A stretch of 64,000 nucleotides of DNA from Candidatus Amesbacteria bacterium RIFCSPLOWO2_01_FULL_48_25 (GTDB lineage: Bacteria; Patescibacteriota; Microgenomatia; CAZETR01; Amesbacteraceae): contig MEXN01000005.1 in the NCBI GenBank assembly GCA_001773695.1, positions 3,687-67,686 of the forward strand. The letters run 5' to 3'. This document shows positions 10,352-41,265 of this stretch, one piece after another; position 1 is the stretch's first letter; every line of letters begins with the position of its first letter. Below the pieces are notes generated by a model. That model ran no database searches, had not been told where the DNA came from, and saw only the letters and a list, made by a program, of their open reading frames with translations. The position numbers and the translations under genes were made by a program.

Positions 10352-11242
10352 TTGACAACAGGTGGGGAGTTGATCCAATATGGAGTTGCGACGCATATGC
10401 GAGATAAAAAAGTGGTAGCGGGTGTGGGTTTGGCAGTATTAGTGTTTGGAGTGGCGGTGGGGGTGAGTTTGGTGCAGCAGAGGTTGGACATTAGGAAGAA
10501 GGCGGCGGGGGGAGCGGCTTCGTATTTGAAGCTGGAAAAAACATTTACGGTGAATCCGGCAGTTGGAACACTATTTGATGTATATGTGACTTTAAATACC
10601 GACGGGGTGGCGGTGGGGGCGGTAGATGCGGTGGTTAATTTTAGCCGGGGAGCGTTGGAACTGGTGGATGTGATAGTGACACCTAGGACAGGTAATGCTG
10701 GGGGTGAGCTGCGGGCGTTTTTGCCGGTAACTGGGACGACGACCAAAACATTTGATAAAGTAAAAGTGGTTGCCCAGGCAAATACTACCGGGGGAATTGT
10801 GTTGGGGGCGGTGGCGCAAGACTTAAATACTGGGGCTGTGCTTAGTGGCTTTAACGGGAGTTTGGGCACCGGTAACCCATTGGCTGTCTTGCGGTTTAAA
10901 GGGCTGACCGGGGGGACGACTAGTTTGAATTGGCAATATTCCACTGGGGCGACGAATGACACCAATATGGTAAGCGTATCGTCGCCGACGGATATTTTGG
11001 CAAGTGTAGCAGGATTGAGTGTGACGGTGGCTTCGTCTGTCACCGGGACGCCAGTGCCTCCACCTACGGGAGCGTTTCTAGTTGGGGATATTAATAGGGA
11101 CGGGTGTGTCAACGTCCAGGATTACATACTGCTCTCTAATGCCTACGGGACGAATAACTCGGCTGCAGATTTGAATGGGGATGGGATAGTCAATGTCCAG
11201 GATTACATATTGTTAAGCAACAACTTTGGCCGATGTTCGTGA
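10352..11242 (+). CDS. membrane-anchored (N-terminal TM) cohesin-like domain protein with C-terminal type-I-like dockerin
   Basis: TM 'VVAGVGLAVLVFGVAVGV'; cohesin-like beta-sandwich segment 'FTVNPAVGTLFDVYVTLNTDGVAVGAVDAVVNF'; duplicated Ca-binding dockerin 'GDINRDGCVNVQDYILLS...LNGDGIVNVQDYILLS'. Likely true start Met at ~10397. Confidence 0.6.
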   Translation: MTTGGELIQYGVATHMRDKKVVAGVGLAVLVFGVAVGVSLVQQRLDIRKKAAGGAASYLKLEKTFTVNPAVGTLFDVYVTLNTDGVAVGAVDAVVNFSRGALELVDVIVTPRTGNAGGELRAFLPVTGTTTKTFDKVKVVAQANTTGGIVLGAVAQDLNTGAVLSGFNGSLGTGNPLAVLRFKGLTGGTTSLNWQYSTGATNDTNMVSVSSPTDILASVAGLSVTVASSVTGTPVPPPTGAFLVGDINRDGCVNVQDYILLSNAYGTNNSAADLNGDGIVNVQDYILLSNNFGRCS

Positions 11243-11266: not shown

Positions 11267-12883
11267 ATGAATAGTAGCACTATGGATAGTATGCGAGATT
11301 TGTTGAGGCGGCATTTGCTGGCTGCACTAGTCATTTTGCTGATGCTGCCGCTGGGAGTGATTTTGGCGCTGCGGCAGACGAGGTTGGGGAGTAAGGCAGC
11401 GGGCACGGCAATATTGTCAATTGCGCCTACTAATGTGCTGATAGCTCCGAACACGGCGGGGACGTTTGATGTCTTTTTGGATCCGCGGGGTGAGAATGTG
11501 GCGGGGATGGATGTGACGATTAGATACGATTTTAATGTGATTGGGGTAACCGACGTAACGCCGGGGGCGTTTTTCAACTCAGCTGCAGGGAGTCCTCAGG
11601 TGCTTCTTAAGGATATTACTACTGAACCGGGAATTGTCAGATATTCGGTGGCCTTTCCTTTGGGGAGCCAGGTGACTTCTTCTACAGCTGGGGTGGCGGC
11701 TACTATACGTTTTACGAGCCGGACGGCTGGTTCGACTGTGCTTGATATCTTGAGTGTATATGGGACGTTTAGGACAGTGGTGACTAACGGTCTGGGGGCG
11801 GATGTGTTGGGGACTATTAATGATGGAAATCTGATTGTGAACGGTCCGCCTACCGGTCAGGGTAGACTGTATTTTGCTGGTCCCAATCCGGCTAATCCTC
11901 AGGCAATTGGTACTACCTTTAATATGGAGGTGCGGGCGGGTACTGGAGGCCAGAGTATTGATGGCCTGGATGCAAGAATTAGATTTGACTCTAACGTGAT
12001 GAGGGTAGTGAGTTTGTCCCAAGGACCGGTTTTCGCTTCGTATCCGGCGATAACATATTGTAATGCCAACCAGACGTGTGCTGCTGGCATGGTGCCGGGG
12101 CAGATAGAAATATCGGCTAATATTGGGAGTGGTGACACTGCTACGCCGGTTAACGGGGATCCGGTGATAGTCGCTGGTATAGTATTTATGCCGTTTGCTA
12201 ACACTGCCGGGACGAGTATTTCATATCTTTTTAATGGAGTGGGGGACAGGAACGACAGTAATATGGTGTTGTATGGCTCGGGTACGCTCCAGGATCCGAT
12301 TGATATACTGGGTTCGGTGACAAATGCCAATATCGTAATCGGAGAAGGGGGGGCTACTCCCACCAATACGCCGGTCCCGACTGTGACTGGGGCGCCGACG
12401 CTAACGCCAACGCCGGGAGCGGGATTGGTGACTTTCAGGTTTGCTTTCGAAGGAAGATTGCGGGCAGGCGTGAGCCGGGCTAAGACTGTGACTGTTATCA
12501 AACGGACGCTGCCTACTGGGACTGAGACTATATCTACGGTAAACACGAATTCAAATGGCGAGGCAGCAATCAGTGTTTCGCCTGGCAGCTATATCTTTTA
12601 TGCCGATACGGCTGGTTATCTGAAACGTAGATTTGGAACGCTGACTTCCCCTGTAGTCATTGCGACGGGGCAGACGGTGGTGGACTTTACGAGCACCCCA
12701 CTTAAGGGAGGGGATTTGACGAGCGATGGAATAGTGAATGCGGTTGACTATACGTCGGTGTTCTTGCAAGCCTTCTTGAGTACTAATCAGACAGTGGATT
12801 TGGACGGCAGCGGGCTGGTTAATAATTTGGACTTCAGCATCATGAGAAGGAACTGGTTCCAGGTAGACGATATATTGCAATAA
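11267..12883 (+). CDS. N-terminal TM protein with two cohesin-like modules, Pro/Thr linker, and C-terminal dockerin
   Basis: TM 'LLAALVILLMLPLGVILAL'; two 'ap-x-ag-tfdv...d-x-v-g-d-v..f' cohesin-like segments; C-terminal 'GDLTSDGIVNAVDY...DLDGSGLVNNLDFSIM' dockerin repeats. Confidence 0.6.
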   Translation: MNSSTMDSMRDLLRRHLLAALVILLMLPLGVILALRQTRLGSKAAGTAILSIAPTNVLIAPNTAGTFDVFLDPRGENVAGMDVTIRYDFNVIGVTDVTPGAFFNSAAGSPQVLLKDITTEPGIVRYSVAFPLGSQVTSSTAGVAATIRFTSRTAGSTVLDILSVYGTFRTVVTNGLGADVLGTINDGNLIVNGPPTGQGRLYFAGPNPANPQAIGTTFNMEVRAGTGGQSIDGLDARIRFDSNVMRVVSLSQGPVFASYPAITYCNANQTCAAGMVPGQIEISANIGSGDTATPVNGDPVIVAGIVFMPFANTAGTSISYLFNGVGDRNDSNMVLYGSGTLQDPIDILGSVTNANIVIGEGGATPTNTPVPTVTGAPTLTPTPGAGLVTFRFAFEGRLRAGVSRAKTVTVIKRTLPTGTETISTVNTNSNGEAAISVSPGSYIFYADTAGYLKRRFGTLTSPVVIATGQTVVDFTSTPLKGGDLTSDGIVNAVDYTSVFLQAFLSTNQTVDLDGSGLVNNLDFSIMRRNWFQVDDILQ

Positions 12884-13743
12884 TGGTCAGGGTAGGCTTA
12901 TGGTTGGCGGTGACGGTCTTTTTGGTGGGAGGGCTGGTGGGTACGGCCGGGGCGGCAGCAGAGCCGAGCTTAGGGTTTGTACCGGTTTCGAAGGTAATTA
13001 AGGTGGGGGAGAGGTTTACGGCTCAGATAGTAATGGATACTGCGGGAGCTGAAGTGGGAGGGGCGGATATGATGCTAGTTTACGATCCGGAGAAGGTAAC
13101 TGTGGTGGAAGTGGTGCCGGGGACTTTATTTGATGATTATCCAATTGCCGCATTTGATAACGAAACGGGTAAAATATCTTTTTCCGGGATTGTTTCATCC
13201 AAAGACAGGTTGTATAGCGGGAGGGGAACTTTGGGATCGGTTACATTTATGGGGCGGGCGGCGGGGGTGAGCATTGTCAAGTTTGAATTTACGCTGGGAG
13301 ATACCCGGGATTCGAATATAGCCGTGACTTATGAGCCGGGGGATATTTTAGCTAAGGTTGATAATTTGACGATAGTAGTTGGGGGCGGCGACGAAGTAGT
13401 GGAGGCGGAAGTGACCCCAACGCCGGCTGGGAATGTGAGTCCAACCCCCACACCGGTGGTTGGATTGTGGGACCGGGTGCTTATAGCACTAGGCTTAAAG
13501 AGCGGGCAGGGGTATCCCGGCGATCTGAATGGCCCGTTGGTGTCCCAGGCGCCCAAGAGAGATTTGGGGGCTACCGAGCCGGCAATGGAGACAGTGGGAG
13601 GTCAGGGGGGTAAGTTGTGGATGTGGTGGGTGCTACTGGCGCTGGTTTTGATCCTAATAATAGTGATAGGGGTAATATGGTGGAGGAGACGGCGTCGTGA
13701 AAGAAAAGAGAAGCCGGTTGTAGGAGGTACGCTTGGGAAGTGA
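12883..13743 (+). CDS. secreted cohesin-domain protein with Pro/Thr linker and C-terminal TM anchor plus poly-Arg stop-transfer (anchoring scaffoldin-like)
   Basis: signal peptide 'MVRVGLWLAVTVFLVGGLVGTAGAAA'; cohesin-like 'VPVSKVIKVGERFTAQIVMDTAGAEVGGADMMLVYDPEKVTVVEVVPGTLFDDYP'; C-terminal 'WWVLLALVLILIIVIGVIWWRRRRRERKEK'; start overlaps previous stop (ATAATG). Confidence 0.6.
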   Translation: MVRVGLWLAVTVFLVGGLVGTAGAAAEPSLGFVPVSKVIKVGERFTAQIVMDTAGAEVGGADMMLVYDPEKVTVVEVVPGTLFDDYPIAAFDNETGKISFSGIVSSKDRLYSGRGTLGSVTFMGRAAGVSIVKFEFTLGDTRDSNIAVTYEPGDILAKVDNLTIVVGGGDEVVEAEVTPTPAGNVSPTPTPVVGLWDRVLIALGLKSGQGYPGDLNGPLVSQAPKRDLGATEPAMETVGGQGGKLWMWWVLLALVLILIIVIGVIWWRRRRRERKEKPVVGGTLGK

Positions 13744-22560: not shown

Positions 22561-22574
22561 TTATAACTTAAAAA

Positions 22575-22889: not shown

Positions 22890-23010
22890 GGAAGTATTGA
22901 GAGTATTTTACCATTATTGGCTGATTATTGGGAATTATGCAGAACTAATGCTGAATAATTACAAGGTTTTTTGTCCACAGTGATAAAATCGGCAAAGATG
23001 AAGATTAAGT

Positions 23011-24811: not shown

Positions 24812-26362
24812 ATGAATATGAAAGCGGTACTGTATGCCAGGGTGTCCAGTAGAGAGCAGGAGCAGGGGTATTCATTGGCGGCACAGACAAAGTTGATTAA
24901 GGATTATGCGGAGAGGAACGGTGTTGAGATAATTAGACAATTTGTTTGTTCAGAAAGTGCAAAGGAGGATGGTAGGAAGGTATTTTCCGAGATGGTTGAG
25001 TTTCTAAAAACGAAGCCAGACGTGGAGCTTTTGCTATGCGAGAAGGTCGATAGACTTCTAAGGGGGAATCTGAAAGACAGAGTAGAAGTGGACGACTTGG
25101 TGAGTAAGTATGAAAAGAAAGTAGTGTTTGTAAAGGATGGCACGTCCTACTCTGGGGATTCAAAATCGACGGAAAAATTGACTTATGGAATTCAGGCAGA
25201 GCTGGCGAGGTTTTACCTAAATAACTTGTCTGATGAAGTGAAAAAAGGTTTGACGGAGAAGGCGTCCAGGGGTGAGTATCCGGGTACTCCGCCGTTTGGC
25301 TACGTGAGGAAGGAGGGTAAGATTTTAGTGCATCCGGAGACTTCGGTGGCAGTGAGAAAGGCGTTTGAGTGGTACGCCTCCGGTTCTTACTCGATAAGGC
25401 AGCTTAGGAATAAGCTGGTTGCGGAAGGGTTGGCAACTAAGCTAAACAAGGGGATATTGGGAAGCAGCGATGTGGGCCACATGCTAAGAAATCCGTTTTA
25501 CTATGGGGAGTTTAGGTGGAATGGGAAGGTTTACCCCAGTAACAGTACTTATGAACCGTTGATGAGCAGGGATTTGTGGAATAGAGTGCAGGAAACATTA
25601 GATGAGCAGAATAAACCCAGGACTCGGAGGCATAACTTTAACTTCACCATGTTGTTGCGATGTGGGGAGTGCGGGTACAGCGTGACGGCGGAGAAGAAGA
25701 CTAAATTTTACAAGAAGACTGACAGGAAGGCCGAATACACTTACTATCATTGCACTAGGCCCGATTACGGACGGATAAAATGCCATCAGAAGCCAATTAC
25801 GGAGGAGGAGATGGTGGGCCAACTTACTGGAATTGTGGATTCCATTTCAATTACGGAGGAAGTGGTGGAATTGATGAAAAGTATTCTGCGAAAGGGAGTT
25901 GATGAGGAGCACGTGTATCACACTCAAGCCATTGAAGCTCTAAGTCAGAGATATAAGGAATTTCAGGAGAAAAAGCGGAGGTTGCTGGATGGGTATTTGG
26001 ATGGTGCCGTTAAAGAGGCAACATACCAGGAGAAGGATGAGGAATTGGAAAGGGAACTAAGGGAGGTCGTGGCTCAAAGAGAGAAGCACGAAAGTGGAAA
26101 TAGAGTCTACTATGAGCAAATTGAGAATTTCATTGAAGTGTGCCACCGGGCTCCGGAACTATTCAGAAGTTCCAGTCCTAAGCTAAAACGGGAACTTTTG
26201 AGGTATGTTGTATCGGACCTCCGGTTGATAGACGGAAAAGTCCTATGTACCTACAAATTTCCGTTCTCGGAACTTCTGAAAACAAAGGAAAATGGTAATT
26301 GGCAGGGGCGGAAGGAATCGGACCTTCGTCATTGGTTTTGGAGACCAAGAGCCTACCACTGA
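24812..26362 (+). CDS. large serine recombinase (resolvase/invertase N-domain + recombinase domain + zinc-ribbon + coiled coil)
   Basis: 'AVLYARVSSREQEQGYSLAAQ' catalytic-Ser motif; 'LLRCGECGYSV...YYHCTRPD' zinc ribbon; long coiled-coil C-terminus. Confidence 0.85.
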   Translation: MNMKAVLYARVSSREQEQGYSLAAQTKLIKDYAERNGVEIIRQFVCSESAKEDGRKVFSEMVEFLKTKPDVELLLCEKVDRLLRGNLKDRVEVDDLVSKYEKKVVFVKDGTSYSGDSKSTEKLTYGIQAELARFYLNNLSDEVKKGLTEKASRGEYPGTPPFGYVRKEGKILVHPETSVAVRKAFEWYASGSYSIRQLRNKLVAEGLATKLNKGILGSSDVGHMLRNPFYYGEFRWNGKVYPSNSTYEPLMSRDLWNRVQETLDEQNKPRTRRHNFNFTMLLRCGECGYSVTAEKKTKFYKKTDRKAEYTYYHCTRPDYGRIKCHQKPITEEEMVGQLTGIVDSISITEEVVELMKSILRKGVDEEHVYHTQAIEALSQRYKEFQEKKRRLLDGYLDGAVKEATYQEKDEELERELREVVAQREKHESGNRVYYEQIENFIEVCHRAPELFRSSSPKLKRELLRYVVSDLRLIDGKVLCTYKFPFSELLKTKENGNWQGRKESDLRHWFWRPRAYH

Positions 26363-26759
26363 CTGACGCCCCTATGATGATAGGATTTTAGCATTTTTGA
26401 CGGTGGGCTTGACGGGTGGAGTAAGATTGAGAATGTGGCGTGTGGGCTAATAGCCATTGCATCGGCTAAGTAGGGGGAGTAGTATTCTGGCTGGTGGGAG
26501 CAGAGATTACTTGTCAGAGAGTGTGGATTTCAAGGTTGGATATAGCAAAGTTGCTGCGGGCTTTATGGGGGCAGGGAGACGATAAAGCGGTGCGGGCGGC
26601 GAGGATTTTGAACCAAGTGAGGATGGTTCGGGAAGAGTGTCCGTTGGCTGGGAAGAATGGATGTGATCCGGCGAAATGCCCGGCGGGGTACATAGTGGAG
26701 ATGGGTAGGGAGTGATTTTGGTGTTGACAAATGTTAATCAGTGAGAGATTATTGCAGCC

Positions 26760-29626: not shown

Positions 29627-32329
29627 TTAATTCGTGACGAAGAACCAAACTTTGGCTACACCAGAGGCTCGGTTTTGGATGCCGCTTGGTCCACATATTA
29701 AAGGAATGTTGCATGTGGTTAAGTGGGTTTCAGAATCATCCGAGGTGGCAGCGATGGAATGCCAGCCATTTTGAAGTTTATTAAGATCGATTAGGACAGG
29801 CTGGAGTGATGTTATATTCCCAGGTTGAGCTAGAAGCACTAAACCAGCGCGGGCTTGAACCTGGGGCCAAGTTCCGGTCGCGGGAATAGCGTGACTTTTG
29901 TCCATTGCAATTGTGAGTTTGCTACTAGTTTCTTGAGAGGCTCTTGCTCGGAAGGTATAACCTGATGGGTAAGCACTCTTTGAAAGTGGCCTAAGAGGCA
30001 CACAGTCTATCACGGCGACAGTATATCCGGCGTCTGTATACCAACCTCTTCCTGAAAAAGACGAATATCTAGTTGATCCGGGGCCGGGATTATTACAAAG
30101 CATTTGACCAGTAACAGCGTCGGCGTGGGCCGTGTCTGATGTACTACCATTTGCTACTTGAAAAGGAACTGCGCTGGAATTGAGGAATTCCTTGCCGTCA
30201 AGAGTATGTGAAACCGAGCGGAGTCTGAATTCGTGCCATTGATTACTCAAGCTGTTGGTATCAAAGTTTACATCGAAGTTAAATGCACAGTTTGTGCTAA
30301 TTGAACCGTCGTATGGACATCTGGTATTTGTACTAACATAACGTCTTGTATGACTTTCGTCATAAACCTCGACCGTTGATAAAGTACTAGGGTTATCGTG
30401 CATGACGATACGGATGTTGAAGTTCATGGTTCCTGTAACCTGTTGACCCAAAGGAACATTAGCGGCCCAGTGCACATGTCCGTAACTTGGCATCCACCAG
30501 CCTTGCAGTTCGATTGGAATTCTTCTTTGATCAAAAGCTACTTGGCCATTGACAAGGTAAGGGGGCGACTCGGCACACCAGAGGCCACCGCAGTCTGATG
30601 TTGACCCGGGTGGGGGGTTTGGAAAGGTGCCGGGGGGGAGAGTGGGGCCGGGGGTGGAGGTGGGACCAGATGTCGGAATGGGGGTGGGGGTACGAGTAGG
30701 TGTGGGGATACTAGTGGTGGGGGTAGGACCGGTAGAAGTCGGGGTGGGGGAAGAGGGGGGAGAGGGAAGGAAATTGACACGCCAGATGAGGTAGTCAACC
30801 CCATTGACCATTGAGTCGGTGTTGAAGTCGGCTGGCGAAGTAGTTAGGCCGTAGTCGCGAGCCCAAAGGCCCAGATCTACTAGATCCACATCCCCATCGT
30901 GATCGGCGTCACCTGGGAGAAATGAGGAGGTGGGGGCGGGGGATCCGGTAGGAACGGAAGTGGGGGTTGGGGTGGAGAGAGGATTGCCGGAGATGGGAGT
31001 ATTCATGACGGATTGGATTTCGGTGGATGATAACTCGCGGTTGTAAATTCGAACCTCGTCGATGATGCCGGAGAAGAAATCGTTAAAGCTGGAACCCGAT
31101 GGATGAGCACCAATATATATAGTGTCGGTGACCGAGCTAGGTTGGGCCCCAAAGGGAGAGGCGAAAGTAGTGCCCATCCATGTGCCGTCGAGATAAGCTC
31201 GGAGATTGCCGGTGCCATCATAAGTTACCGCCAGATGGTGCCATTGGTTATTGGGAATTGTGCCGGACCAGATATCATCCCGGGTGCCGTCGTAGAAGCC
31301 GACTTGGCCGTTGGCCAGGAAAAAGTGACGGTTGGGGCCGACGGAGACGATGGTTTCCCGAGAGCTGTTAGTGGGATTGTTGATCCAGGCCATAAAGGTG
31401 TAGGGGAGGATAGTAACGGAAGAGTCCTGGGTGCGGCTGGAAGTGCCGTTGAATGATAGGCCATTTGAAAACTTGCCGGTAGTCCAGGTAGTGTTGGAGA
31501 GGGCGGCGTGGCGGGAGTTGCCGGAGGTATCAAAAGCGGTGGTGCCGGAGCCTTCGTTGAAACTGTATGCGGCTAGTTGGTCTGGAGCGGCAGAGTCGGT
31601 ATTGTATTGGTCGGATTTGGCCCACCAGATGAAAGTTGCACTTCCGGGGAAGTCGGCGCGGGGATGGTCGGAGTTGGCGAAGGAATGAATTTGGGCGGCT
31701 TGGGTGTCTGACAAGGTTCCGGTTCCGGCGGCAACCCAATAATAATCGGAATTAGGCTGGCGACCTGAGCCTTGGACAAGGGTAGACCCGATTAGAAACG
31801 GCGCTTGGGCAGGTATGGAGCTGGTAGAGGTGGTAACGAACTGATTTCCATCAACACTGATTTTTAGTTGGGTGGGAGTCCAGGCGGCGATAATGGTTTT
31901 GGTATCGCCGATGCTGAAGGATTGAGTAGCTGATGCGTGGATAGTGCCGCCGGAGCCACTGTTGCGGGCGAAGTGAAACTGATCCGTTCCGACGTCGTAA
32001 TACACAAAGAGGTCCTTGGGGTCAGATTCGCTCATGTCCCAGATGATGGGGTCTGGGGAAAGAGTAGTAGTTGAGGGGAAGCCCACTTTCATTCTCACTG
32101 CGACCCAGCCTTGGGTGGGGTTTATGAGATTTGTTTCCGGGAGCTGGGCGGAGTCGCTACTGCGGGAGATATTGGCGCTGGAGTCGGCGTTGTAAGTGAC
32201 GCCAGAGGTACATAGTGAGCCCGGAGTAGTACAAGACGTTTGGGCCAGAGCGATTTGTGGAGAGAAAAGCTGGGATAAAAGCATGAGGAGACCCGCTAAA
32301 CCTAGGGCAAATACGAGTATCGTTCTCAT
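29627..32329 (-). CDS. giant secreted protein: tandem LamG/concanavalin-like lectin domains, internal dockerin, Pro/Thr linker, C-terminal unknown domain
   Basis: signal peptide; LamG-like 'WINNPTNSSRETIVSVG...WHHLAVTYDGTGNLRAYLDG...IDEVRIYNRELSSTEIQ'; dockerin 'GDADHDGDVDLVDLGLWARDYG...FNTDSMVNGVDYLIW'; PTPT linkers. Confidence 0.7.
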   Translation of the reverse strand: MRTILVFALGLAGLLMLLSQLFSPQIALAQTSCTTPGSLCTSGVTYNADSSANISRSSDSAQLPETNLINPTQGWVAVRMKVGFPSTTTLSPDPIIWDMSESDPKDLFVYYDVGTDQFHFARNSGSGGTIHASATQSFSIGDTKTIIAAWTPTQLKISVDGNQFVTTSTSSIPAQAPFLIGSTLVQGSGRQPNSDYYWVAAGTGTLSDTQAAQIHSFANSDHPRADFPGSATFIWWAKSDQYNTDSAAPDQLAAYSFNEGSGTTAFDTSGNSRHAALSNTTWTTGKFSNGLSFNGTSSRTQDSSVTILPYTFMAWINNPTNSSRETIVSVGPNRHFFLANGQVGFYDGTRDDIWSGTIPNNQWHHLAVTYDGTGNLRAYLDGTWMGTTFASPFGAQPSSVTDTIYIGAHPSGSSFNDFFSGIIDEVRIYNRELSSTEIQSVMNTPISGNPLSTPTPTSVPTGSPAPTSSFLPGDADHDGDVDLVDLGLWARDYGLTTSPADFNTDSMVNGVDYLIWRVNFLPSPPSSPTPTSTGPTPTTSIPTPTRTPTPIPTSGPTSTPGPTLPPGTFPNPPPGSTSDCGGLWCAESPPYLVNGQVAFDQRRIPIELQGWWMPSYGHVHWAANVPLGQQVTGTMNFNIRIVMHDNPSTLSTVEVYDESHTRRYVSTNTRCPYDGSISTNCAFNFDVNFDTNSLSNQWHEFRLRSVSHTLDGKEFLNSSAVPFQVANGSTSDTAHADAVTGQMLCNNPGPGSTRYSSFSGRGWYTDAGYTVAVIDCVPLRPLSKSAYPSGYTFRARASQETSSKLTIAMDKSHAIPATGTWPQVQARAGLVLLAQPGNITSLQPVLIDLNKLQNGWHSIAATSDDSETHLTTCNIPLICGPSGIQNRASGVAKVWFFVTN

Positions 32330-32379
32330 TTGGAGTATCTCTTAAGTAAAAAGGTTTTTGGGGGGAGAGTCAAGAGGGG

Positions 32380-34818
32380 TTACTGTCTGATGGTTCCGGT
32401 GACGGGATCGTAGCCGCCCTGGATGAATTCGTAGTCGGACCAGGGGATGGAGCTGAGAGCGCTGAAGGTCAGGCCCAGATTTTGCCACGCGGTTTTATTT
32501 AACTCAAGCTGTACCCGGTTTCCTGCGCCGGTGTTGTCTCCTACAGTGCAGCCGTAAGTTTGAAGGGCCCTGGCTATTACTAGGGCGGGTGGGGTTAGGC
32601 CTTTGGTTGAGAGATTTACACTGGGTTTGATGCGGGCGACAATGCCTTCGGGGACGATGCCGCCTTTGGCACCTTCGTCACCGGACATCGGCCAGTAGTG
32701 GTTGGCGTAATTGGTTCCAGTGGCCCACCAGAAGCACTCCAGGCGGTGGTTGATGGCGCCGGCTTGGACCTCGTCCACCCGGATGGCGCGGGCGGGGGGA
32801 GGGATACCTCGGTGACCGAAATTTAAGACTGTGGTATAGCCGGTGACTCCGAAAGCTAGGCCATTGGAGTCCAGAACGTAATGCTTGAATGATGCATAAG
32901 ACCAGGAGTTGCTGGTGCTGTTGTATACGGCTTTCCACATTTCTATGACCTGGTTCCAGCCCCGATCGTAGACGATGAGCGCTCCGTCAGAGCCCGATGC
33001 TGGTTTGGCGCCAAGAGGGATACGGTAAGGGATGGTAACAGTGACGGGATTGTTGGTGACTGGGTCTATGTAGGTGTAGTTGTAGTTATAGGTGGGGTCG
33101 GAGGCGGTAGCCCAGTAGATGGGGTAGCCAAAGTCTTGGAGAGCGTCGGGGGCGGCGGTAAGCCCAAGATAGTCGAGATTCTCCGAAGATGTTTGGCTAT
33201 CTGTAATATAGGTGGAGCTGTGAATATCGATGGGAGCATTGGCCGGCATGGGGACGTTCCAGTAACTGTCGTTGGTGTGGGAGCGATAGACGGAGCCTAC
33301 TGGTGGAGGAGTGGGAGTGGGGCCTGATGGAGTGGGGGTAGGAGTCGGGGTGCGGGTGGGAGTGGGGCCGGTAGTGGTGGGGGTAGGAGTAGTGGGAGGA
33401 GAGGGGGCGGGGAGGAAATTGGTGCGCCAGATGAGGTAGTCGAGGCCGTTGACTGTAGAATCCGAGTTGAAGTTAGCCGGGGAGATGGACAGACCGTAAT
33501 CCCGGGCCCATAATCCCAGATCACCTAGGTCTACGTCCCCGTCATGGTCGGCGTCACCAGGGGGGAACGAAGTGGAGGAAGTGGAGATGACCAGGGCCGG
33601 GCGGCAGCTGGGAATGGCAGTGGGACAGGTGGCTTCGGAAGAGTAAATATCCAGGCCGTCAATGTCGGTCTGGTCCAGGCCGACAGAGTAATAATTACCC
33701 CGGTTGGCAGAGACAGAAGAAGTGATGTCGATTAGTTTAGTTTCGCCAAGGGTTCCCCCGGGGTTGGTAGCCAGAACTGTTCCTAGGGGGTAACTGGTGG
33801 AATTGGAGTAAGTTAGAGTGCTTTCGGACCAAGAGGAATTGGAAATGAATTTAACCGATTGGGTGGAAGTGGAGTCTGAGTTTGTGGCCTGGGAAACGGT
33901 AAGCCGGAGTTTGGCCGAGGTAATGGTGGTGTTACTTAGATTTCTCAGGTCAAACTTGAGAAATGAGATTTTAGTGGTGGGTGAAGCATCTACTCCCAAG
34001 ACACCGCTTGAACCATAGTTTGAGGAAGGGCTGCCCGAGTCCACGTAAGTGTCTTCAATTGCTGTAAGAGTAAATGTACCTCCGGGTGGAAGTGTGGGGG
34101 TGGGAGTAGGTGCGGTCGAGGAAATGGTGATATTGAGTTGGGAAGTGGGGGCCGCCAAGATATCTTCGACGGTGGTTGCGGCGGTGACATTGGAGTCGGT
34201 GGTTGAGGAGAGGGAAGTGAAGACGAATTTGATGGGATTGGTTCCGGCGGGAGCGGTAGATTTGACCTGGAAAGTGAAAGTGGCCACATCGACAGTGGAA
34301 CCATTGGTGGAGTAGGCGGCGGTGGGGGCATTGGCACCCCAGTTGAAGCGAACAAAGCCGAATTCGGCAACGCCCCGACCGGAGGGGCAACCAGACGAGC
34401 CGCCGTTGTTGGCACAATTTATGACCCTTAACAAATCGAATGTTCCTGTACTGGTGACGGGGGCAAAGGTGGCCGAGGTGGAGTTGAGGTTGGTGTCTCC
34501 AGTGGGATTGATGGTGATACCGGTTAAGGAGAGCTGGTCGGCGTTGAAGCTGGTTAGGATGTCGCTGCCGGATATGGATTGGGTGTTGGTATTGAGCCTG
34601 ACGGTGACGGGAAATGAGTTACCGGGTGAGTAGGTGGTTGGGGAAAGAGGGGCAAAGGTGAGGGTGGCCGTGTCGGCGAGGGCGGCTTTCTTTTTGAAGA
34701 GCTGGGTTTGACGGACCGCAGTCAAGCCGAGAAATAAACCCAGAAGGAGAAGGAGGATGATAAACAGACCGCGGCGATTGTTGGGCATAAGATGAAAACT
34801 GTTAGGGCCAGGTAACAC
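32380..34818 (-). CDS. giant N-terminally anchored surface protein with internal dockerin and Pro/Thr linker; C-terminal domain of unknown function
   Basis: TM 'LFIILLLLLGLFLGL'; dockerin 'GDADHDGDVDLGDLGLWARDYG...FNSDSTVNGLDYLIW' near-identical to that of 29627..32329; PTPT linker. Confidence 0.65.
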   Translation of the reverse strand: MLPGPNSFHLMPNNRRGLFIILLLLLGLFLGLTAVRQTQLFKKKAALADTATLTFAPLSPTTYSPGNSFPVTVRLNTNTQSISGSDILTSFNADQLSLTGITINPTGDTNLNSTSATFAPVTSTGTFDLLRVINCANNGGSSGCPSGRGVAEFGFVRFNWGANAPTAAYSTNGSTVDVATFTFQVKSTAPAGTNPIKFVFTSLSSTTDSNVTAATTVEDILAAPTSQLNITISSTAPTPTPTLPPGGTFTLTAIEDTYVDSGSPSSNYGSSGVLGVDASPTTKISFLKFDLRNLSNTTITSAKLRLTVSQATNSDSTSTQSVKFISNSSWSESTLTYSNSTSYPLGTVLATNPGGTLGETKLIDITSSVSANRGNYYSVGLDQTDIDGLDIYSSEATCPTAIPSCRPALVISTSSTSFPPGDADHDGDVDLGDLGLWARDYGLSISPANFNSDSTVNGLDYLIWRTNFLPAPSPPTTPTPTTTGPTPTRTPTPTPTPSGPTPTPPPVGSVYRSHTNDSYWNVPMPANAPIDIHSSTYITDSQTSSENLDYLGLTAAPDALQDFGYPIYWATASDPTYNYNYTYIDPVTNNPVTVTIPYRIPLGAKPASGSDGALIVYDRGWNQVIEMWKAVYNSTSNSWSYASFKHYVLDSNGLAFGVTGYTTVLNFGHRGIPPPARAIRVDEVQAGAINHRLECFWWATGTNYANHYWPMSGDEGAKGGIVPEGIVARIKPSVNLSTKGLTPPALVIARALQTYGCTVGDNTGAGNRVQLELNKTAWQNLGLTFSALSSIPWSDYEFIQGGYDPVTGTIRQ

Positions 34819-37786
34819 TTGCAGAACAAGATTCGTAGAAAGTGGTGGCTAGAATGTAGGGACTTGCTATTATATTGCCACTGAAAAGGAAGACCAGATC
34901 TTTGGTTTGTCCGACGGCGGTAACCCTGTTACCCGTCGACCAGGAGCTAATTGTGGCTGTGCAAACACCCGTGGTTGAATTGCATGACCCGGTTGAGCCT
35001 GTCCAAATAATCACACCAGCAAGGGTAATCTTTTGAAGTTGGCCTTTATAGTACGGCCAGGTGAGAGAAATGCTGGAAATTGTGGCATTAGCTGTGGATT
35101 TTGTTGGGTCATTAAATATCCTGGAGTAAAAGCTGTTTCCGCCCGCTCCTTGGGAAGTCAGGTTGACGTAGCAGACAGGGATAGGGGTGGGGGTGGGAGG
35201 AGCTGGGGTTGGGGTGCGGGTGGGAGTAGGAGGGATGGGAGTAGGGGTGCGGGTGGGAGTAGGGGCTGTTGTGGTGGCAGTGGGAGAGAGGGTGGGGGAT
35301 GGGGTGGAAGCGGGGAGAGGACCGGCGAGGGAGGCGAAATCAAGGGAATTGACTTTGAAGTCCCCATTTTGGTCCAGGATTGAGCTGAGCCAGGAGAGAA
35401 GGAGATTTTTGATGGTGGCGATGGGGGTGGGTGAGATGGTTGGTCCCAGGCTGGTTAATACAGCTCCGTCGTCATAAATCAAACCAACCCCGGGAGCATA
35501 GCGCTTGGTACTGGGGGGAGTTTCATTTACCAATAAGACATTGTTGAAGGTGCCAGCGGGAACTGTATATGTCCCAAATGATATGTGTAGAGCCCGATCT
35601 TCAGCGAATCCTGGAGCAAATTCTTGATAATAAGACTGGCCTACTGCTGGAGAGGCCGGCATGATTATACCCGGCCTGAAATTTGGGTGAGCTGGATCGT
35701 CATAAGCAATCCAGGAGCCTGCTATGGGATTTCCGTTGCCGTCGAACACATCCTCGCCATAGTAGCAGACGGTGCCATTGGGGGCCTGAACAAACCAGTT
35801 ATTCGATACTTCAACAAGAGTACCATTTAGCCACTCTCTCTCCTCTATCACGCGGGTGGTTATGCCGCCTATAACTTTTGTTTGATTTAAGACACTGAAC
35901 TGAACCTTAAGTCCTCCACCTTCGAGTATGTGTACCAGGCCGACTGGCAGGGGGAAGTAGGGATTGTTGATGTTAAGAGAGAAAGGACCGTTGGCGCGGT
36001 CGCAGACGGCAATATCGATCTCGCCCGTTGAAGGCTGAGTGGGAGTGGGAGCACCTGAAGGAGTGGGAGTGGGAGGAATTGGAGTTGGGGTTCGGGTGGG
36101 AGTAGGGCCGGAGGTGGGTGAGGGACCGGGAGTGTTGGTGGGTCCAACACCGCCAGAATTTAGGGTAATGGTATCGCGGTTAACTCCTGTTTGGTCAATA
36201 TAGCTGGCAGTCATGGTGTCGCCATTGACCTGGAAATATAGAAAACCGGCGTCGGAGTCGCCGGAAGCCGATTTGGCGGCACAGCCCGGACCAGGACTGG
36301 TAGAAGTGCAACTGGAAGAGCCACTTTTACCACCATTCCCGATAGTATAGGCCTGGACGTTGGGGTAAAAACCGGGTTTTCGGTTCCAGCGTTCGAAAAC
36401 GTGGGAGTGGCCCCAAAGAACCAGATCGGCTCCGGCATCGGAGGCCATGCGAATTAAGTTGTCTATGATAGCTGTATTTGTGGAGTGAGATCCGGCAGAC
36501 CAGCCGTTGTGGTGCCAATAGACGACCTTCCAAGGCTGGTTTGAGGTAATCAAGTTATTGTAAGCCCAGGCTACCTGGGGATCGGAAGCGGAAGGATTGG
36601 TAGCATTGTAAGCGTAGCTACTGTTGGAATTTAGGGCTACGAAGTGAACGTTGCCATAATCAAACGCGTAAGTTGATATTTGGGACGACATTTTTCCTCC
36701 ACCGGGTAGACTATGGTCGGCCATTACCGTGGGGCAAGAAGTCTCGTGATTGCCGCAGGTGACGTAAAAAGGAGAGAACGACATCGTATTTTGGCCGGGA
36801 GAGGCATCAGAGTAGCGATCGAAATAAAGAGTATTGTTGTTACTAAAACTGGTGCTGTATGGGTAAGCGATGTCGCCGGCAACTATGGTCACATCCGGTC
36901 TTTTGGCAAAAACTTGTTTGGCAACGTTATTTTGGCGGGTGCCGTTGTCGCCAGAATCTCCCCAAATGGCCCAGGTGAAGGGGGTGGATGAGCCGACGGC
37001 GGGAGGAGTTTTGAAATAGTGGTTGGGATCACCGGCCGGGGTTAAGGCCGTTCCTGTGGTAGTGGTAACTTGATAGTAATATGAGGTGTTTGGAGCCAGG
37101 CCGGTGATTTTGGCGTGGTTATTATTCCCGCCGGTACAAGGAAAGCTGGAGTTGTTACCGCAATTTATTAACTGCTCGGCGTCACTAGTCACTTGGCTGC
37201 CGTAAGAAGTCGTCAATCCGTACTTGACGATGAGCTGGTTCTGGGTATTGGTTACCCATCTGAAATCATATGAAGCGGTGGTGGCTTTTTGTAAAAAAAC
37301 CTTTCTGGTGAGGTTTGCGGAACCAGGAATTGGTGTCGGGGTTGGGATTGGGGTATTTGTTGGAACGAGGGTGGGGACGGGGGTGTTGGTAGGGACGGTT
37401 TGGTTTGTTAAACACAAGCAATTTGTCCACTGAACTTCGTGCCTATCGATTGCCCCAGCCGGGCAATATATGGTGCCTTGGGTATTTTCGATAAAGTTAG
37501 AGCAGGTACCACTCAATTCAATGCATGAATTATTTGTTGAATCCCTGGCGAAGTACTTGTTGTTTGATGCAGACGAGTCGGTGCCAACATCATAGCATTG
37601 AAATCCGTATCCTTGGTTTGCGCATACGTCATTACATGTAGCCCCATTAGAAGTCGGACCTGCCTCACCTCCATTGAAAACTACTCTTGAGGTGGTTTGT
37701 GACAGGACCGGTCTTGGTAGAAGTATTAGGAGGAGGAAGAGGGTGAGGATGAACGAGAATTTTTTGGACATTATAGTTAGATTCAA
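34802..37786 (-). CDS. giant secreted protein containing an FN3 + purple-acid-phosphatase-type metallophosphoesterase domain, Cys-rich N-domain, Pro/Thr linkers and a half-dockerin-like segment
   Basis: metallophosphatase motifs 'WGDSGDN', 'GDIAYP', 'GNHE', 'VYWHHNGWS', 'WGHSHVFER'; signal peptide; 'DQNGDFKVNSLDFASL' dockerin-like half site. Confidence 0.7.
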   Translation of the reverse strand: MNLTIMSKKFSFILTLFLLLILLPRPVLSQTTSRVVFNGGEAGPTSNGATCNDVCANQGYGFQCYDVGTDSSASNNKYFARDSTNNSCIELSGTCSNFIENTQGTIYCPAGAIDRHEVQWTNCLCLTNQTVPTNTPVPTLVPTNTPIPTPTPIPGSANLTRKVFLQKATTASYDFRWVTNTQNQLIVKYGLTTSYGSQVTSDAEQLINCGNNSSFPCTGGNNNHAKITGLAPNTSYYYQVTTTTGTALTPAGDPNHYFKTPPAVGSSTPFTWAIWGDSGDNGTRQNNVAKQVFAKRPDVTIVAGDIAYPYSTSFSNNNTLYFDRYSDASPGQNTMSFSPFYVTCGNHETSCPTVMADHSLPGGGKMSSQISTYAFDYGNVHFVALNSNSSYAYNATNPSASDPQVAWAYNNLITSNQPWKVVYWHHNGWSAGSHSTNTAIIDNLIRMASDAGADLVLWGHSHVFERWNRKPGFYPNVQAYTIGNGGKSGSSSCTSTSPGPGCAAKSASGDSDAGFLYFQVNGDTMTASYIDQTGVNRDTITLNSGGVGPTNTPGPSPTSGPTPTRTPTPIPPTPTPSGAPTPTQPSTGEIDIAVCDRANGPFSLNINNPYFPLPVGLVHILEGGGLKVQFSVLNQTKVIGGITTRVIEEREWLNGTLVEVSNNWFVQAPNGTVCYYGEDVFDGNGNPIAGSWIAYDDPAHPNFRPGIIMPASPAVGQSYYQEFAPGFAEDRALHISFGTYTVPAGTFNNVLLVNETPPSTKRYAPGVGLIYDDGAVLTSLGPTISPTPIATIKNLLLSWLSSILDQNGDFKVNSLDFASLAGPLPASTPSPTLSPTATTTAPTPTRTPTPIPPTPTRTPTPAPPTPTPIPVCYVNLTSQGAGGNSFYSRIFNDPTKSTANATISSISLTWPYYKGQLQKITLAGVIIWTGSTGSCNSTTGVCTATISSWSTGNRVTAVGQTKDLVFLFSGNIIASPYILATTFYESCSASVTWP

Positions 37787-37831: not shown

Positions 37832-38230
37832 GTGAAGGTTAGACTTTTGTTGTTTGTTTTGACTGTAGTTGGTCTAATTGCGCTGGGTTACTATTTGTTC
37901 CAAAGATCGAAGCCAGAACCGGTTGAGGAGGTGCTGAATAGGGTGCAGACGGTAAATGTCCGGGCGGATGGGGGGAAATTTGTGCCGGATAGTTTTAAGG
38001 TGGAGCTATTTGATATGGTGAAGCTGAATATTTCGGCTGTAGACCGGGATTACGTTTTTAAAGTTAGGGATTACCCCAGAATGGATGTGAGCGTTCCTGC
38101 TGGGAAAACTATTGTTGCCACCATAGAATTTTTGGGGGTGGGAGATTATGTCTTTGAATGCGGGCAGGGGTGTACCGGAACGATTACCGTGGTCCAGGAG
38201 AGGGATACAGAAGGAGAAGAGCCGAATTAA
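37832..38230 (+). CDS. small N-terminally anchored cupredoxin-like protein (tentative)
   Basis: TM 'LLLFVLTVVGLIALGYYLF'; C-terminal beta-rich 'GDYVFECGQGCTGTITVV' reminiscent of a cupredoxin/plastocyanin-like ligand loop; weak. Confidence 0.35.
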   Translation: MKVRLLLFVLTVVGLIALGYYLFQRSKPEPVEEVLNRVQTVNVRADGGKFVPDSFKVELFDMVKLNISAVDRDYVFKVRDYPRMDVSVPAGKTIVATIEFLGVGDYVFECGQGCTGTITVVQERDTEGEEPN

Positions 38231-39524
38231 TGTAAGGGAGGAGATTCGGCGGAGCTGTCGCTTTAGCTTTTTGATATAGGTTTCTAGACTCTGCCGGTTT
38301 GCCGAGCGTGAACTTTATTCCGGCTAGATTGATCATGTCCGGGTAGCCAAGATAAAAATAGAGTTTATGGGGGTGGGTTTTAGTGGCTTGCTCTAATTCT
38401 GACTCGGCTTGGATATAATCCCCCTTGAATAGGTAATAGTTGCCCAAGTAAGAGTGGGCTTCGGAAAAATCCGGATCGGTGGCAACTTCCGGGGTGAAGA
38501 GGGTGGCGTCGTTTTGGTATTGGAAGCCGGCGAAGAAAGTCGAGACAGAGGCGATGGCAATCCAGAGGTAAAGAAGCGGACTACCGAGCCGGCGGGTTAT
38601 CAAGACCAGACCCAGGGCGAAGGGAATGAGGGGCAGATAAGCATAGTGGGGCGAACCCACCCTGGGAACCGGAATGATGTTCAGGCCAGGGGCGAGCATG
38701 ATGGCAAACAGGACTAGGAATTTTTTGTTTTTGATTTTTAGGAATGCGATGATGAGGAGAAAGAGCGAAAATAGGGATTTGGGGTCGGTGATTTTTAAGA
38801 TGGGCACCACGTCGCTCAACGTCGGTTTGAGGGGGGCGACGAGCATAAATAGCCAACGGTTGAGAAGATCAAGGCGAGTGCCGATATTTTCGGATAGGGA
38901 AAGGCTGACGGCCGGTGTGCCCCAGACTTGGGGAACGGCGGAGTATCGCAGGGTGCTGTAAACTAAAATGAGAGAAGCAAGCAACAAGAGCGGCGAGCGA
39001 TGAAACTTTTTGGTGAGCAAAATTAATGCAGGAACTATAATGAGGGCGGTTTCTTTGGAAAACAGGGCCAGGGCGAAAGCGGCGGAGGTGGGTAAGGCAC
39101 GATTAAGATTGTAAAAATATAAGGTGAGCATGATACCGATGAGAACCAGTGATTCCTGGCGTTGGAAGATCAGACCGACGACGGGGGAGGCGACAGGATG
39201 GACGCCGATGACAAGAGTCGTAAGAAGTTTCTCTTTGGCAGTGAGGTGGAAAAATACCGATAGAAAAAGGGGGGTTAAGGCGGCCACCAGAAGATGCAAA
39301 AAAATCGAGGTGAGATGAAATCCGGGCAACCACTGGCCATAGATAGCCGAGTCGAGACTGTATGAGATGGTAACCGCGGGGCGATAAAAGCTGGTGTGAC
39401 CAAAAGGGGAGGTGAAGGCCTTGTAAATTTGAGACAGGGGTAGGACGGCGGCGCGCCTTTGGATGTCATTGTGCTCGAGCCAAAGAAAATCTCGGTTTAA
39501 GAAGCTTAAGTGGATCAAGAACAA
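38184..39524 (-). CDS. polytopic membrane protein (O-antigen-ligase / PMT glycosyltransferase-39-like) with C-terminal TPR
   Basis: ~10 TM helices followed by 'AHSYLGNYYLFKGDYIQAESELEQATKTHP' TPR-like repeats; true start likely downstream of 39524 overlap-free Met. Confidence 0.5.
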   Translation of the reverse strand: MFLIHLSFLNRDFLWLEHNDIQRRAAVLPLSQIYKAFTSPFGHTSFYRPAVTISYSLDSAIYGQWLPGFHLTSIFLHLLVAALTPLFLSVFFHLTAKEKLLTTLVIGVHPVASPVVGLIFQRQESLVLIGIMLTLYFYNLNRALPTSAAFALALFSKETALIIVPALILLTKKFHRSPLLLLASLILVYSTLRYSAVPQVWGTPAVSLSLSENIGTRLDLLNRWLFMLVAPLKPTLSDVVPILKITDPKSLFSLFLLIIAFLKIKNKKFLVLFAIMLAPGLNIIPVPRVGSPHYAYLPLIPFALGLVLITRRLGSPLLYLWIAIASVSTFFAGFQYQNDATLFTPEVATDPDFSEAHSYLGNYYLFKGDYIQAESELEQATKTHPHKLYFYLGYPDMINLAGIKFTLGKPAESRNLYQKAKATAPPNLLPYINSALLLLYPSPGPR

Positions 39525-39939: not shown

Positions 39940-41265
39940 TCATGTGGGTTTGTTTAAAAGTATAGCCAATCCTAAACCTGTCACAATAACAGCAGATAGG
40001 ATCGAGATATACTTTTCTGTGTTTGCAAAATGGGGTATTTTTTGCAAAGTCATTTTTTTGGAAACAACCACCAAGACACCTCCAATAACCAAAGCGCTGG
40101 CAAGGCCAAGACTAAAAATCACCAAAAGAATAATCCCGAACAATATCTTTCGCACCGAGACGGCAACTACCAAAATAGCCAGAGCATCAACACAAGGAAC
40201 AATCCCTCCAGAGATACCCAAGGGCATCAGGTTTTTCCAATCAATCTTACTCACATTATCTTCGTGCAAATGTGGATGTAGATGCTCATGCTGGGGTTTA
40301 AACAAATCAACTATCCTAGTAACCAGAAGGTATAGTCCAAACCCGGTAACCAGAATCCCCGATACGACATTCAACCACTTAATAATGGTGACCGGCACAA
40401 TATATTGAGTAAGAAGCAGAGCCAGAAGACCCAAAATAAAAACGCTGGCGGTGTGGGTAATAGTGATTATCAGACCTAGTTGAACGGCATGAGTAATCGT
40501 TCCTTTCTCACCGACTAGATAACCGGCAACGATAGCTTTGCCGTGTCCTGGGGTTAACGCATGAAGCATGCCTATTACAAAAGCAGCAAAGAGGGCAAGC
40601 CCGGCTAGTTTCGTTGGTACTTTGTCAACTTTTACGTAAGTGTTTAAAAAAATGTTTATTCTGGATCCAGCACTTATACCCAGAACCGAAGGGCTATTTT
40701 TCTGGCCCTCACTAACTTTAATTTTGACCGAGTCGGATTCTACTTTTTCCAAAACATCCGCCTTTAGACCTTCTGTACCTTTGGCTGACAGTTCAAACTC
40801 CCCTAATTTTTTGTCCTTTCCTTGGTAGTGGTAACTCCAAATTTGTCCTGGCAAAAATTTCCCGCTAGTTTCAAACTCGATACTAACGTTAGCTGGCCGG
40901 GGTAAATAAAAGGCGTAGTAGCCTGGAAACGATAACTTATGGGCTGAAAAGTCATATCTGGTTCCATCTAATTCCAACCATGACGAGTCTTGGCCCTTTA
41001 TCATCCAGGAGTCTTTTTCTTTCTGGGAAATTTCCCGATCTTTATTTATGTCGATACTTTCCCAAATTTTATTTTTGTCCAAGGGGTATAATATCAATTG
41101 GATAGTCAGCTTTGCCTGACGAGGGGATATCTCCAATATTTGTCTCTGGTCGTAAGTTATGGTATTTCCAAACTCGTCGACGGGGTGAGCTTGGGCGGTG
41201 CCTGGGTTGGACAAAACTAAAAGAGTGAGGAGGGTGAGTGCAAAGGGTTTCATGAAAGTCTGCAA
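39940..41265 (-). CDS. fusion of a periplasmic beta-sandwich domain and a 6-7 TM transporter-like domain with 'LHALTPGHGKA' motif (putative Ni/Co-type metal transporter)
   Basis: signal peptide, soluble N-domain, then TM region with HxxxPGHGK and second His-rich loop 'HEHLHPHLHED'; family assignment tentative. Confidence 0.45.
   Translation of the reverse strand: MQTFMKPFALTLLTLLVLSNPGTAQAHPVDEFGNTITYDQRQILEISPRQAKLTIQLILYPLDKNKIWESIDINKDREISQKEKDSWMIKGQDSSWLELDGTRYDFSAHKLSFPGYYAFYLPRPANVSIEFETSGKFLPGQIWSYHYQGKDKKLGEFELSAKGTEGLKADVLEKVESDSVKIKVSEGQKNSPSVLGISAGSRINIFLNTYVKVDKVPTKLAGLALFAAFVIGMLHALTPGHGKAIVAGYLVGEKGTITHAVQLGLIITITHTASVFILGLLALLLTQYIVPVTIIKWLNVVSGILVTGFGLYLLVTRIVDLFKPQHEHLHPHLHEDNVSKIDWKNLMPLGISGGIVPCVDALAILVVAVSVRKILFGIILLVIFSLGLASALVIGGVLVVVSKKMTLQKIPHFANTEKYISILSAVIVTGLGLAILLNKPT

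Follow-up and report, generated by a model that had tools for sequence, protein, structure and literature searches.

A probable non-cellulosomal cohesin-dockerin surface-assembly system in a Candidatus Amesbacteria bacterium

Do three adjoining genes for large exported proteins of a Candidatus Amesbacteria bacterium, an ultrasmall inhabitant of groundwater, encode parts that plug into one another at the cell surface? Candidate Phyla Radiation bacteria (CPR, or Patescibacteria) are believed to live attached to other cells, and the molecules of attachment are almost unknown outside the Saccharibacteria. The genes, here called P1, P2 and P3, lie side by side on the minus strand of a 64,000-nucleotide stretch of contig MEXN01000005.1 (the window). 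The original prediction, made from the letters of this stretch, was of three open reading frames (ORFs) of 900, 812 and 994 residues for secreted or anchored modular proteins with long Pro/Thr (PT) linkers, each carrying a near-identical dockerin and serving as cargo for cohesin proteins encoded at 10-14 kb. The reading frames are exactly as described; each protein has one hydrophobic segment, always at the N-terminus, and PT linkers separate the domains in all three (Table 1). The domain anatomy of the three proteins can be given with high confidence, and together with the genes at 10.3-13.7 kb they probably form a non-cellulosomal cohesin-dockerin surface-assembly system of a CPR bacterium.

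The element on which this turns is a 52-residue module, present as quoted in the original prediction in two of the proteins, P1 and P2. Its copies are identical at 43 of 52 residues (pairwise BLASTP E 4e-28), and the likeness is confined to the module, the flanking domains being unrelated. In P1 the first loop, DADHDGDVDLVD, is followed by LGLWARDYG and the second, DFNTDSMVNGVD, by YLIWRVNF; P2, as read from its sequence, has the same pattern. Both copies comprise two 12-residue calcium loops, with Asp or Asn at positions 1, 3, 5, 9 and 12, and a helix after each loop; the duplicated loop-helix is visible as DxDxDG..D and DxNxD..D. Searched singly against the PDB, the module returns mostly dockerins (E 0.07-1.6). 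A third copy, 80% identical, occurs in P0003, a P2 relative on a separate metagenome contig (L001) whose middle and C-terminal domains both differ from those of P2. A seed profile of these three sequences matches the Pfam-valid dockerin of the window, in ORF 10352-11242 (E 2.6e-9, the database holding 404 sequences), and also picks up the dockerin modules of a dozen fetched proteins. A profile of 11 sequences, all of which match PF00404 (best E 1.3e-8), recovers solved type I dockerins, namely 2y3n_B (E 4.9e-8) together with some 20 more chains, the best being the cellulosomal dockerins 2y3n_B, 4fl4_A, 1daq and 1ohz. The dockerin character claimed for the segment is thus borne out by the family profiles and not by the single modules, which stay at about 13 bits; we accept the module as a divergent type-I-like dockerin, of a subtype that appears lineage-restricted.

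The two copies are not recent, and 'near-identical' overstates their likeness. Their DNA agrees at 115 of 156 positions (74%), and the longest repeat between the two genes, 217 nt spanning the module and the start of the following linker, is 71% identical. By Nei-Gojobori count the proportion of synonymous differences (pS) is 0.78, which is saturated, and the nonsynonymous distance (dN) is 0.11; the copies are thus an old duplication under strong purifying selection. The alternative, that the module was recently copied between the P1 and P2 genes by shuffling or gene conversion and that all three proteins are dockerin cargo, can point to 83% amino acid identity over 52 residues amid unrelated domains. 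It is very improbable in view of the DNA identities and the saturated synonymous sites, of the same subtype on the separate contig that encodes P0003, and of the make-up of the other proteins, P3 being without a dockerin and P2 having a cohesin. Recent gene conversion is rejected because the synonymous sites are saturated, and the 'recent module shuffling' of the original prediction falls for the same reason; the genes, moreover, carry the native strand skew of the genome. Repetition of the PT-linker DNA between the genes, suggested as a point to check, is found loosely (60-84% over 55 nt).

The window supplies candidate partners. Within 64 kb it encodes five cohesin modules on four proteins (P2, ORF 10352, ORF 11267 with two modules, and ORF 12883), and four proteins bear dockerins (P1, P2, ORF 10352 and ORF 11267). 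P2, the protein left largely 'unknown' before, contains a cohesin (PF00963) and a CBM96/DNRLRE domain. Its cohesin scores at or above the family cut-off but is borderline; a profile of P2-family cohesins matches those of ORF 11267-12883, with an hhalign probability of 95.7% (E 8.6e-9), and of ORF 12883-13743, with one of 91.6% (E 8e-7), both being stronger cohesins than that of P2. Since P2 combines a cohesin with an N-terminal membrane anchor, it appears scaffoldin-like rather than cargo only, and the view of these proteins as cargo for the cohesins at 10-14 kb holds in that the cohesin genes exist there, but not for P2. P1, having neither cohesin nor anchor, has what looks like a pure 'cargo' architecture. 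ORF 12883-13743, with a cohesin, a C-terminal anchor and no dockerin, is a candidate base anchor. The architecture transmembrane helix-cohesin-X-dockerin recurs in an Amesbacteria-like contig and in two Gottesmanbacteria genomes. A scan of a genome collection with full-length P2 matched nothing, and one with the four-sequence alignment A5 (alignment A4 minus P0003 and ORF 10352) found three loci only.

The main rival holds that P1-P3 are independent secreted lectins and enzymes and that the modules are calcium-binding elements without a cohesin partner, either EF-hand-like stabilisers or spacers, or binders of a glycan or of the host surface, no cohesin-dockerin complex being formed. Some of what weighs against an assembly also speaks for this rival. 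The modules score below the PF00404 gathering threshold of 22.9 bits (P2 13.2 bits, E 0.1; the isolated P1 module 13.4 bits, E 0.092), EF-hand families are among the weak profile matches, and the matches to solved dockerins may be partly driven by the more canonical members of the alignment. P3 has one loop only and is without a dockerin, a dockerin-profile search of it giving no match. On the other side of the proposed interface, a sequence-profile search with the cohesin profile matched no solved cohesin. The P1/P2 subtype is rare, a metagenome scan (JGI contigs) yielding only two distant relatives and little comparative support. That the three genes form one operon is probable from their spacing (gaps of 13 nt and 50 nt with the revised starts) and from a weak sigma-70-like promoter match that ends at 37786, directly upstream of the P3 ATG. 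Dockerins of unknown function are widespread outside cellulosomes, and work by Peer et al. from 2009 is said to have found cohesin- and dockerin-like modules across bacteria and archaea, with dockerin-like modules reportedly present in many genomes that have no demonstrated cohesin partner.

Against the absence of a complex stand four observations: the 64 kb encode five cohesin modules, and one of these shares its polypeptide with a dockerin-like module; the combination of cohesin and dockerin is kept in relatives; the tag is far more conserved than its flanks, as expected of a specific protein-protein interface; and P1 has no other means of surface retention. We therefore regard independent, uncomplexed proteins as unlikely and prefer the surface assembly, actual pairing of its cohesins and dockerins being somewhat favoured by the sequences.

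Directly after the transmembrane helix of P2 runs the sequence VRQTQLFKKKAA (34684-34713). It belongs to a juxtamembrane motif common to cohesin-bearing proteins, among them the relatives built as transmembrane helix-cohesin-X-dockerin, with the instances VRQTQLFKKKAA, VQQRLDIRKKAA, LRQTRLGSKAA, QQRQDLRSKA and KKRQELRTKA and the general form RQxQLxxKA. A regular expression for it matched only cohesin-bearing proteins, 9 of the 429 fetched. The motif stands at the N-termini of ORF 10352-11242 and ORF 11267-12883, and also in P0008 and P0013; within the window the expression caught P2 and ORF 10352, the copy in ORF 11267 being spotted by eye. The motif may mark these proteins for processing or sorting.

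What such an assembly would display depends on the remaining domains, of which the C-terminal one of P2 is the most distinctive. Its uncharacterised family comprises 1914 representative clusters at E <= 1e-3 (exhaustive HMMER search), and the domain has no Pfam family and no sequence match in the PDB. The AlphaFold2 model (pLDDT 95.5) finds no match among PDB structures by Foldseek (best E 1.1) and four strong ones in BFVD (E 4e-18 to 6e-13, TMq 0.66-0.70), including a minor tail protein of a Gordonia phage and a phage protein with parallel beta-helix repeats. At the sequence level the domain matches phrog_17388, 'minor tail protein' (E 8.5e-11), and tblastn finds it in 50 Gordonia phages, at 25-28% identity to the phage proteins and E down to 7e-10. 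It thus shares both sequence and predicted fold with these tail proteins (the best Foldseek match having E 4e-18 and TMq 0.70), and differs from them in context, a cellular surface protein rather than a virion. Members of the family are fused to dockerins in other organisms in 7 of 150 proteins. It is reasonable to suppose that the domain may bind or cut a cell-envelope polymer. It may represent a new fold or enzyme family; a family shared with actinophage tail proteins, with a confident predicted fold and no solved relative, is a worthwhile target for structural biology.

In P3 the assignment of an FN3 domain with a purple-acid-phosphatase (PAP)-type phosphatase stands, both domains scoring above their cut-offs: Pur_ac_phosph_N (PF16656) reaches 37.5 bits, where 30 are required, and Metallophos (PF00149) 39.2, where 21.5 are required. 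Purple acid phosphatases have five motif blocks, GDxG, GDxxY, GNH(D/E), VxxH and GHxH, which carry seven metal ligands; all five are present in P3, as GDSG (aa 276), GDIAY (304), GNHE (345), YWHH and GHSH (459). That P3 is a PAP-type phosphoesterase holds as a prediction from these motifs. P3 is 27.5% identical to P0047 over 432 columns. Among relatives of P2, 66 of 117 carry CBM96 and Metallophos on one chain, so that the adjacent P2 (CBM96) and P3 (PAP) look like a split version of a common one-chain architecture; in other phyla a phosphatase of the P3 type is usually joined to CBM96. The proteins annotated 'acid phosphatase type 7' or DNRLRE in Chloroflexi and Actinobacteria likewise combine CBM96 with a PAP-type Metallophos domain; they differ in having both on one polypeptide, whereas here the two sit on adjacent genes and are combined with cohesin and dockerin.

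The heading of the original prediction gave P3 a dockerin as well. In its place P3 has a 31-residue tag with one calcium loop in a helix-loop-helix, which matches the first dockerin loop at 12 bits (E 0.25) and is best described, from its sequence, as a half-dockerin-like element and not a dockerin. A tag of this type recurs at the mature N-terminus of the gene beside P0003 (L001, 5212-6618), and a similar element occurs in P0291. The middle domain of P3, before the tag, belongs to a widespread secreted family with 403 relatives and no Pfam family, which is fused to dockerins elsewhere in 6 of 120 proteins; in Gottesmanbacteria a full dockerin precedes a middle domain of the P3 type. The single-loop tag follows the pattern IK[ND]LLLSWL.S I.D.NGD.KVNSLDFASL and, in P3, adjoins PT linkers; half a dockerin and a second kind of docking tag are both possible identities for it. 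The Cys-rich N-terminal domain of P3 weakly resembles the C-terminus of P0098, which bears a dockerin and comes from another metagenome (pairwise E 0.004), with eight cysteines in register by eye. The Cys-rich, middle and C-terminal domains of P3 have no family in Pfam, NCBIfam or PHROGs.

P1 was described as a tandem LamG protein. Its second LamG domain is strong (E 6e-24); the first stays below threshold (17.2 bits). The C-terminal domain belongs to a small family of 23 relatives without a Pfam model and has no family in NCBIfam or PHROGs either. Its model (pLDDT 80) consists of two beta-sandwiches, and the best PDB match by Foldseek is the biofilm scaffold protein RbmA (E 2.6e-4, with a low TM-score). 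The predicted fold is generic Ig/FN3-like with conserved histidines, several of them invariant or nearly so (as in GHxH and MHDNP, among others). The domain may contain a metal site. Local Foldseek matches to the folds of AA10 lytic polysaccharide monooxygenases and CBP21 were also found. An AA10-type enzyme is rejected because the domain is internal and its conserved histidines lie away from the mature N-terminus even in stand-alone homologues.

These contents bear on a further alternative, a true cellulosome-like machine for breaking down plant or algal polysaccharides, in which a scaffoldin would organise glycoside hydrolases or lyases. Cohesin, dockerin and a carbohydrate-binding module are all present, and the founding member of CBM96 binds alginate (PMC9971899); P0003 has a C-terminal domain different from that of P2, and its neighbouring gene encodes another domain behind a single-loop tag, both of which look polysaccharide-lyase-like, by eye only. 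In P1-P3, by contrast, profile searches gave no glycoside hydrolase or polysaccharide lyase family at E <= 1, and the dockerin-bearing glycoside hydrolases on a scaffoldin that define a cellulosome are not found in them; the cargo is a lectin, a phosphatase and a phage-tail-like domain, and the organism is a small-genome CPR bacterium. A cellulosome is accordingly improbable here.

The preferred non-cellulosomal assembly has much in common with cellulosomes that use adaptor and anchoring scaffoldins, such as those of Clostridium (Acetivibrio) thermocellum, A. cellulolyticus and Ruminococcus flavefaciens (ScaA/ScaB): cohesins and type-I-like dockerins with two calcium loops and two helices, proteins carrying both modules, Pro/Thr linkers, and base components anchored to the cell. 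It differs in that cellulases and other carbohydrate-active enzyme (CAZyme) catalytic modules are not found in P1-P3, the dockerins of P1 and P2 are internal rather than C-terminal, anchoring is by an N- or C-terminal transmembrane helix rather than by SLH domains or sortase, and each protein has one cohesin (at most two) in place of a long scaffoldin; the host is a CPR bacterium, and its cohesin-dockerin binding is a prediction. The GH84 toxin complexes of Clostridium perfringens (PDB 2jnk/2ozn) are a non-cellulosomal example, cohesin and dockerin there assembling non-cellulolytic secreted proteins, and the 11-sequence dockerin profile matches 2jnk_A (E 1.1e-4). They differ in cargo, which here comprises LamG, CBM96, PAP and phage-tail-like domains, in that the cohesin proteins here are membrane-anchored, and in lineage, here Microgenomates.

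Cohesin-dockerin systems, adaptor scaffoldins and non-cellulosomal examples are well known. A full-text literature search found no description of such systems in Microgenomates, and what sets the present case apart is its internal, lineage-restricted dockerins, its transmembrane-anchored proteins with one cohesin and one dockerin, and its non-CAZyme cargo. Among CPR envelope proteins, the nearest by description is SEML1_0315, an essential dockerin-domain protein of a Saccharibacterium for which host-glycan targeting has been speculated (PMC10633639). It differs in belonging to another phylum-level lineage, and no cohesin partner or P2-like architecture is mentioned for it in that paper.

The assembly that we infer would work as follows. 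P1-P3 would be exported as modular envelope proteins, their domains strung on Pro/Thr linkers. P2 would be held in the membrane by its N-terminal helix and display its cohesin, CBM96, dockerin and phage-minor-tail-like domain; P1, lacking an anchor, would be retained at the surface through calcium-dependent binding of its dockerin to a cohesin, either that of P2 or one of the four other modules at 10.3-13.7 kb. The membrane-anchored cohesin proteins, P2 and the three products of the 10.3-13.7 kb genes (ORF 12883 especially), would hold dockerin-tagged partners, and P2, because it has cohesin and dockerin on one chain, might serve as an adaptor or as a scaffoldin that forms chains, as might the others that carry both. 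The P3 phosphoesterase would be co-expressed with P1 and P2, bearing only its single-loop tag. The functions displayed would be glycan binding or attachment (LamG, CBM96), phosphoester hydrolysis and phosphate release (P3), processing of envelope polymers, and whatever envelope-directed role the phage-tail-like domain has.

The suggestion that the proteins may form a phosphate-scavenging and host-adhesion complex is reasonable. If the model is true, the cohesin-dockerin 'plug-and-socket' would be a concrete, testable model of CPR surface organisation, in a system that brings together lectin-like modules, a phosphatase of the purple-acid type and a phage-tail-like domain. A bolder version, which we offer as speculation and consider doubtful, is that Microgenomates (Amesbacteria, Gottesmanbacteria) build a self-assembling surface tether from membrane-anchored proteins, each with both a cohesin and a lineage-specific dockerin, and display on it an actinophage-minor-tail-type domain, the episymbiotic cell using a phage-tail-type module for recognition or cleavage of the host envelope, together with lectins and phosphatase, to attach to its host and feed on it.

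Table 1. Genes, domains and linkers of P1-P3 and the candidate partner genes, in window coordinates; residues are numbered within each protein, and signals, anchors and domain functions are predictions.
Feature	Residues	Nucleotides	Strand	Remarks
P1		29627-32329	minus	ORF of 900 aa, OGC97015.1 (exact-sequence look-up); layout: Sec signal peptide, weak LamG-like stretch, LamG, PT linker, dockerin-like module, PT linker, two-beta-sandwich C-terminal domain
P1 first LamG-like stretch	95-184	31778-32047	minus	17.2 bits, below the 27.6 cut-off
P1 Laminin_G_3 (ConA-like lectin)	299-439	31013..31435	minus	PF13385, 85.4 bits against a cut-off of 27.6, E 6e-24
P1 dockerin-type module	472-523	30761..30916	minus	
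P1 C-terminal domain	578-900	29630..30598	minus	323 aa; two predicted Ig/FN3-like beta-sandwiches
P1 PT-rich linkers	450-468, 521-577			
P2		32380-34818	minus	ORF of 812 aa from GTG; 802 aa from ATG, OGC97016.1 / OGD03616.1; layout: N-terminal transmembrane anchor, cohesin, PT linker, CBM96, dockerin-like module, PT linker, phage-minor-tail-like domain
P2 hydrophobic helix	17-35	34714..34770	minus	predicted signal anchor, the sole hydrophobic helix in P2
P2 cohesin	46-235	34114..34683	minus	PF00963, 24.1 bits in full-length protein, 28.2 bits alone; cut-off 24.1
P2 CBM96 / DNRLRE	248-397	33628..34077	minus	PF24517, 85.9 bits against 26, E 3e-24; NF033679, 79.8 bits against 34
P2 dockerin-type module	420-471	33406..33561	minus	83% protein identity to the P1 module
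P2 C-terminal domain	508-812	32383..33297	minus	305 aa; uncharacterised family; conserved Asp, His and Arg residues D104, D111, GHRG, R222 and D254 (domain numbering)
P2 PT-rich linkers	230-253, 465-510			
P3		34802-37786	minus	ORF of 994 aa from TTG; 989 aa from ATG, OGC97017.1; layout: signal peptide, Cys-rich domain, PT linker, PAP N-terminal domain and metallophosphatase, PT linker, conserved 200-aa domain, single-loop tag, PT linker, C-terminal domain
P3 Cys-rich N-terminal domain	30-128	37403-37699	minus	
P3 PAP-type unit	167-463	36398..37288	minus	Pur_ac_phosph_N aa 167-245, Metallophos aa 286-463
P3 middle domain	592-790	35417..36013	minus	about 200 aa; widespread secreted family
P3 single-loop tag	793-823	35318..35410	minus	IKNLLLSWLSSILDQNGDFKVNSLDFASLAG; 31 aa, one calcium loop, helix-loop-helix
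P3 PT-rich linkers	129-157, 548-588, 825-874			
Partner candidate, ORF 10352		10352..11242	plus	transmembrane anchor, cohesin-like domain (aa 48-229), bona fide C-terminal Dockerin_1 (31.1 bits against 22.9)
Partner candidate, ORF 11267		11267..12883	plus	transmembrane anchor, two cohesin modules (aa about 47-165 and 198-361), C-terminal dockerin
Partner candidate, ORF 12883		12883..13743	plus	signal peptide, cohesin (aa 28-167), C-terminal transmembrane anchor, no dockerin

The sequences of P1-P3 are not new; they are already public with automatic domain names, the database entries (Candidatus Amesbacteria; CPR, Microgenomates; 217-kb contigs) each being called 'hypothetical protein'. The true start of P2 is likely the ATG at 34788 and that of P3 likely the ATG at 37771. 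Inspection of the N-termini suggests a cleavable Sec signal in P1 (…IALA|QT) and in P3 (…VLS|QT), and a signal anchor in P2; neither an LPXTG motif nor a C-terminal transmembrane anchor is present in any of the three.

Base composition bears on the history of these genes. P1-P3 share the extreme skew between G and C at third codon positions (GC3 skew) that is native to the window, which argues that they are long resident; horizontal acquisition of the operon is rejected on the same ground. Comparable strand disparity has been described in the Microgenomates order UBA1400 (Collierbacteria, Beckwithbacteria, Ch65), with Amesbacteria unmentioned (PMC7143001), and the disparity of the present window is comparable to that of the published lineages. 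Across positions 1-64000 the GC skew of the plus strand lies between +0.27 and +0.45. Plus-strand genes have a GC3 skew of about +0.5 to +0.64 and minus-strand genes one of about -0.53 to -0.66, synonymous sites being roughly 4:1 G:C whatever the orientation of the gene. Exceptions are found at 19182-21033, 20001-24000 and 39940-41265, and a small number of genes in which skew is zero and GC3 lower (0.42) look like recent acquisitions.

Several neighbouring genes are of separate interest. Divergent from P3, 37832-38230 (plus) encodes a small secreted protein that resembles cupredoxins (PF13473; at 20.9 bits it stays under the cut-off). A large serine recombinase (24812-26362, plus; Resolvase, Recombinase and zinc ribbon) abuts tRNA-Trp (26300-26373, minus) just downstream of the 20-24 kb stretch of zero skew and low GC, a combination that suggests an integrated mobile element. 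The operon region is flanked by two genes for multi-pass membrane proteins with C-terminal TPR repeats (38184-39524 and 45687-47723, both minus), one of which has a Wzy_C / O-antigen-ligase domain; these could glycosylate surface polymers or the PT linkers.

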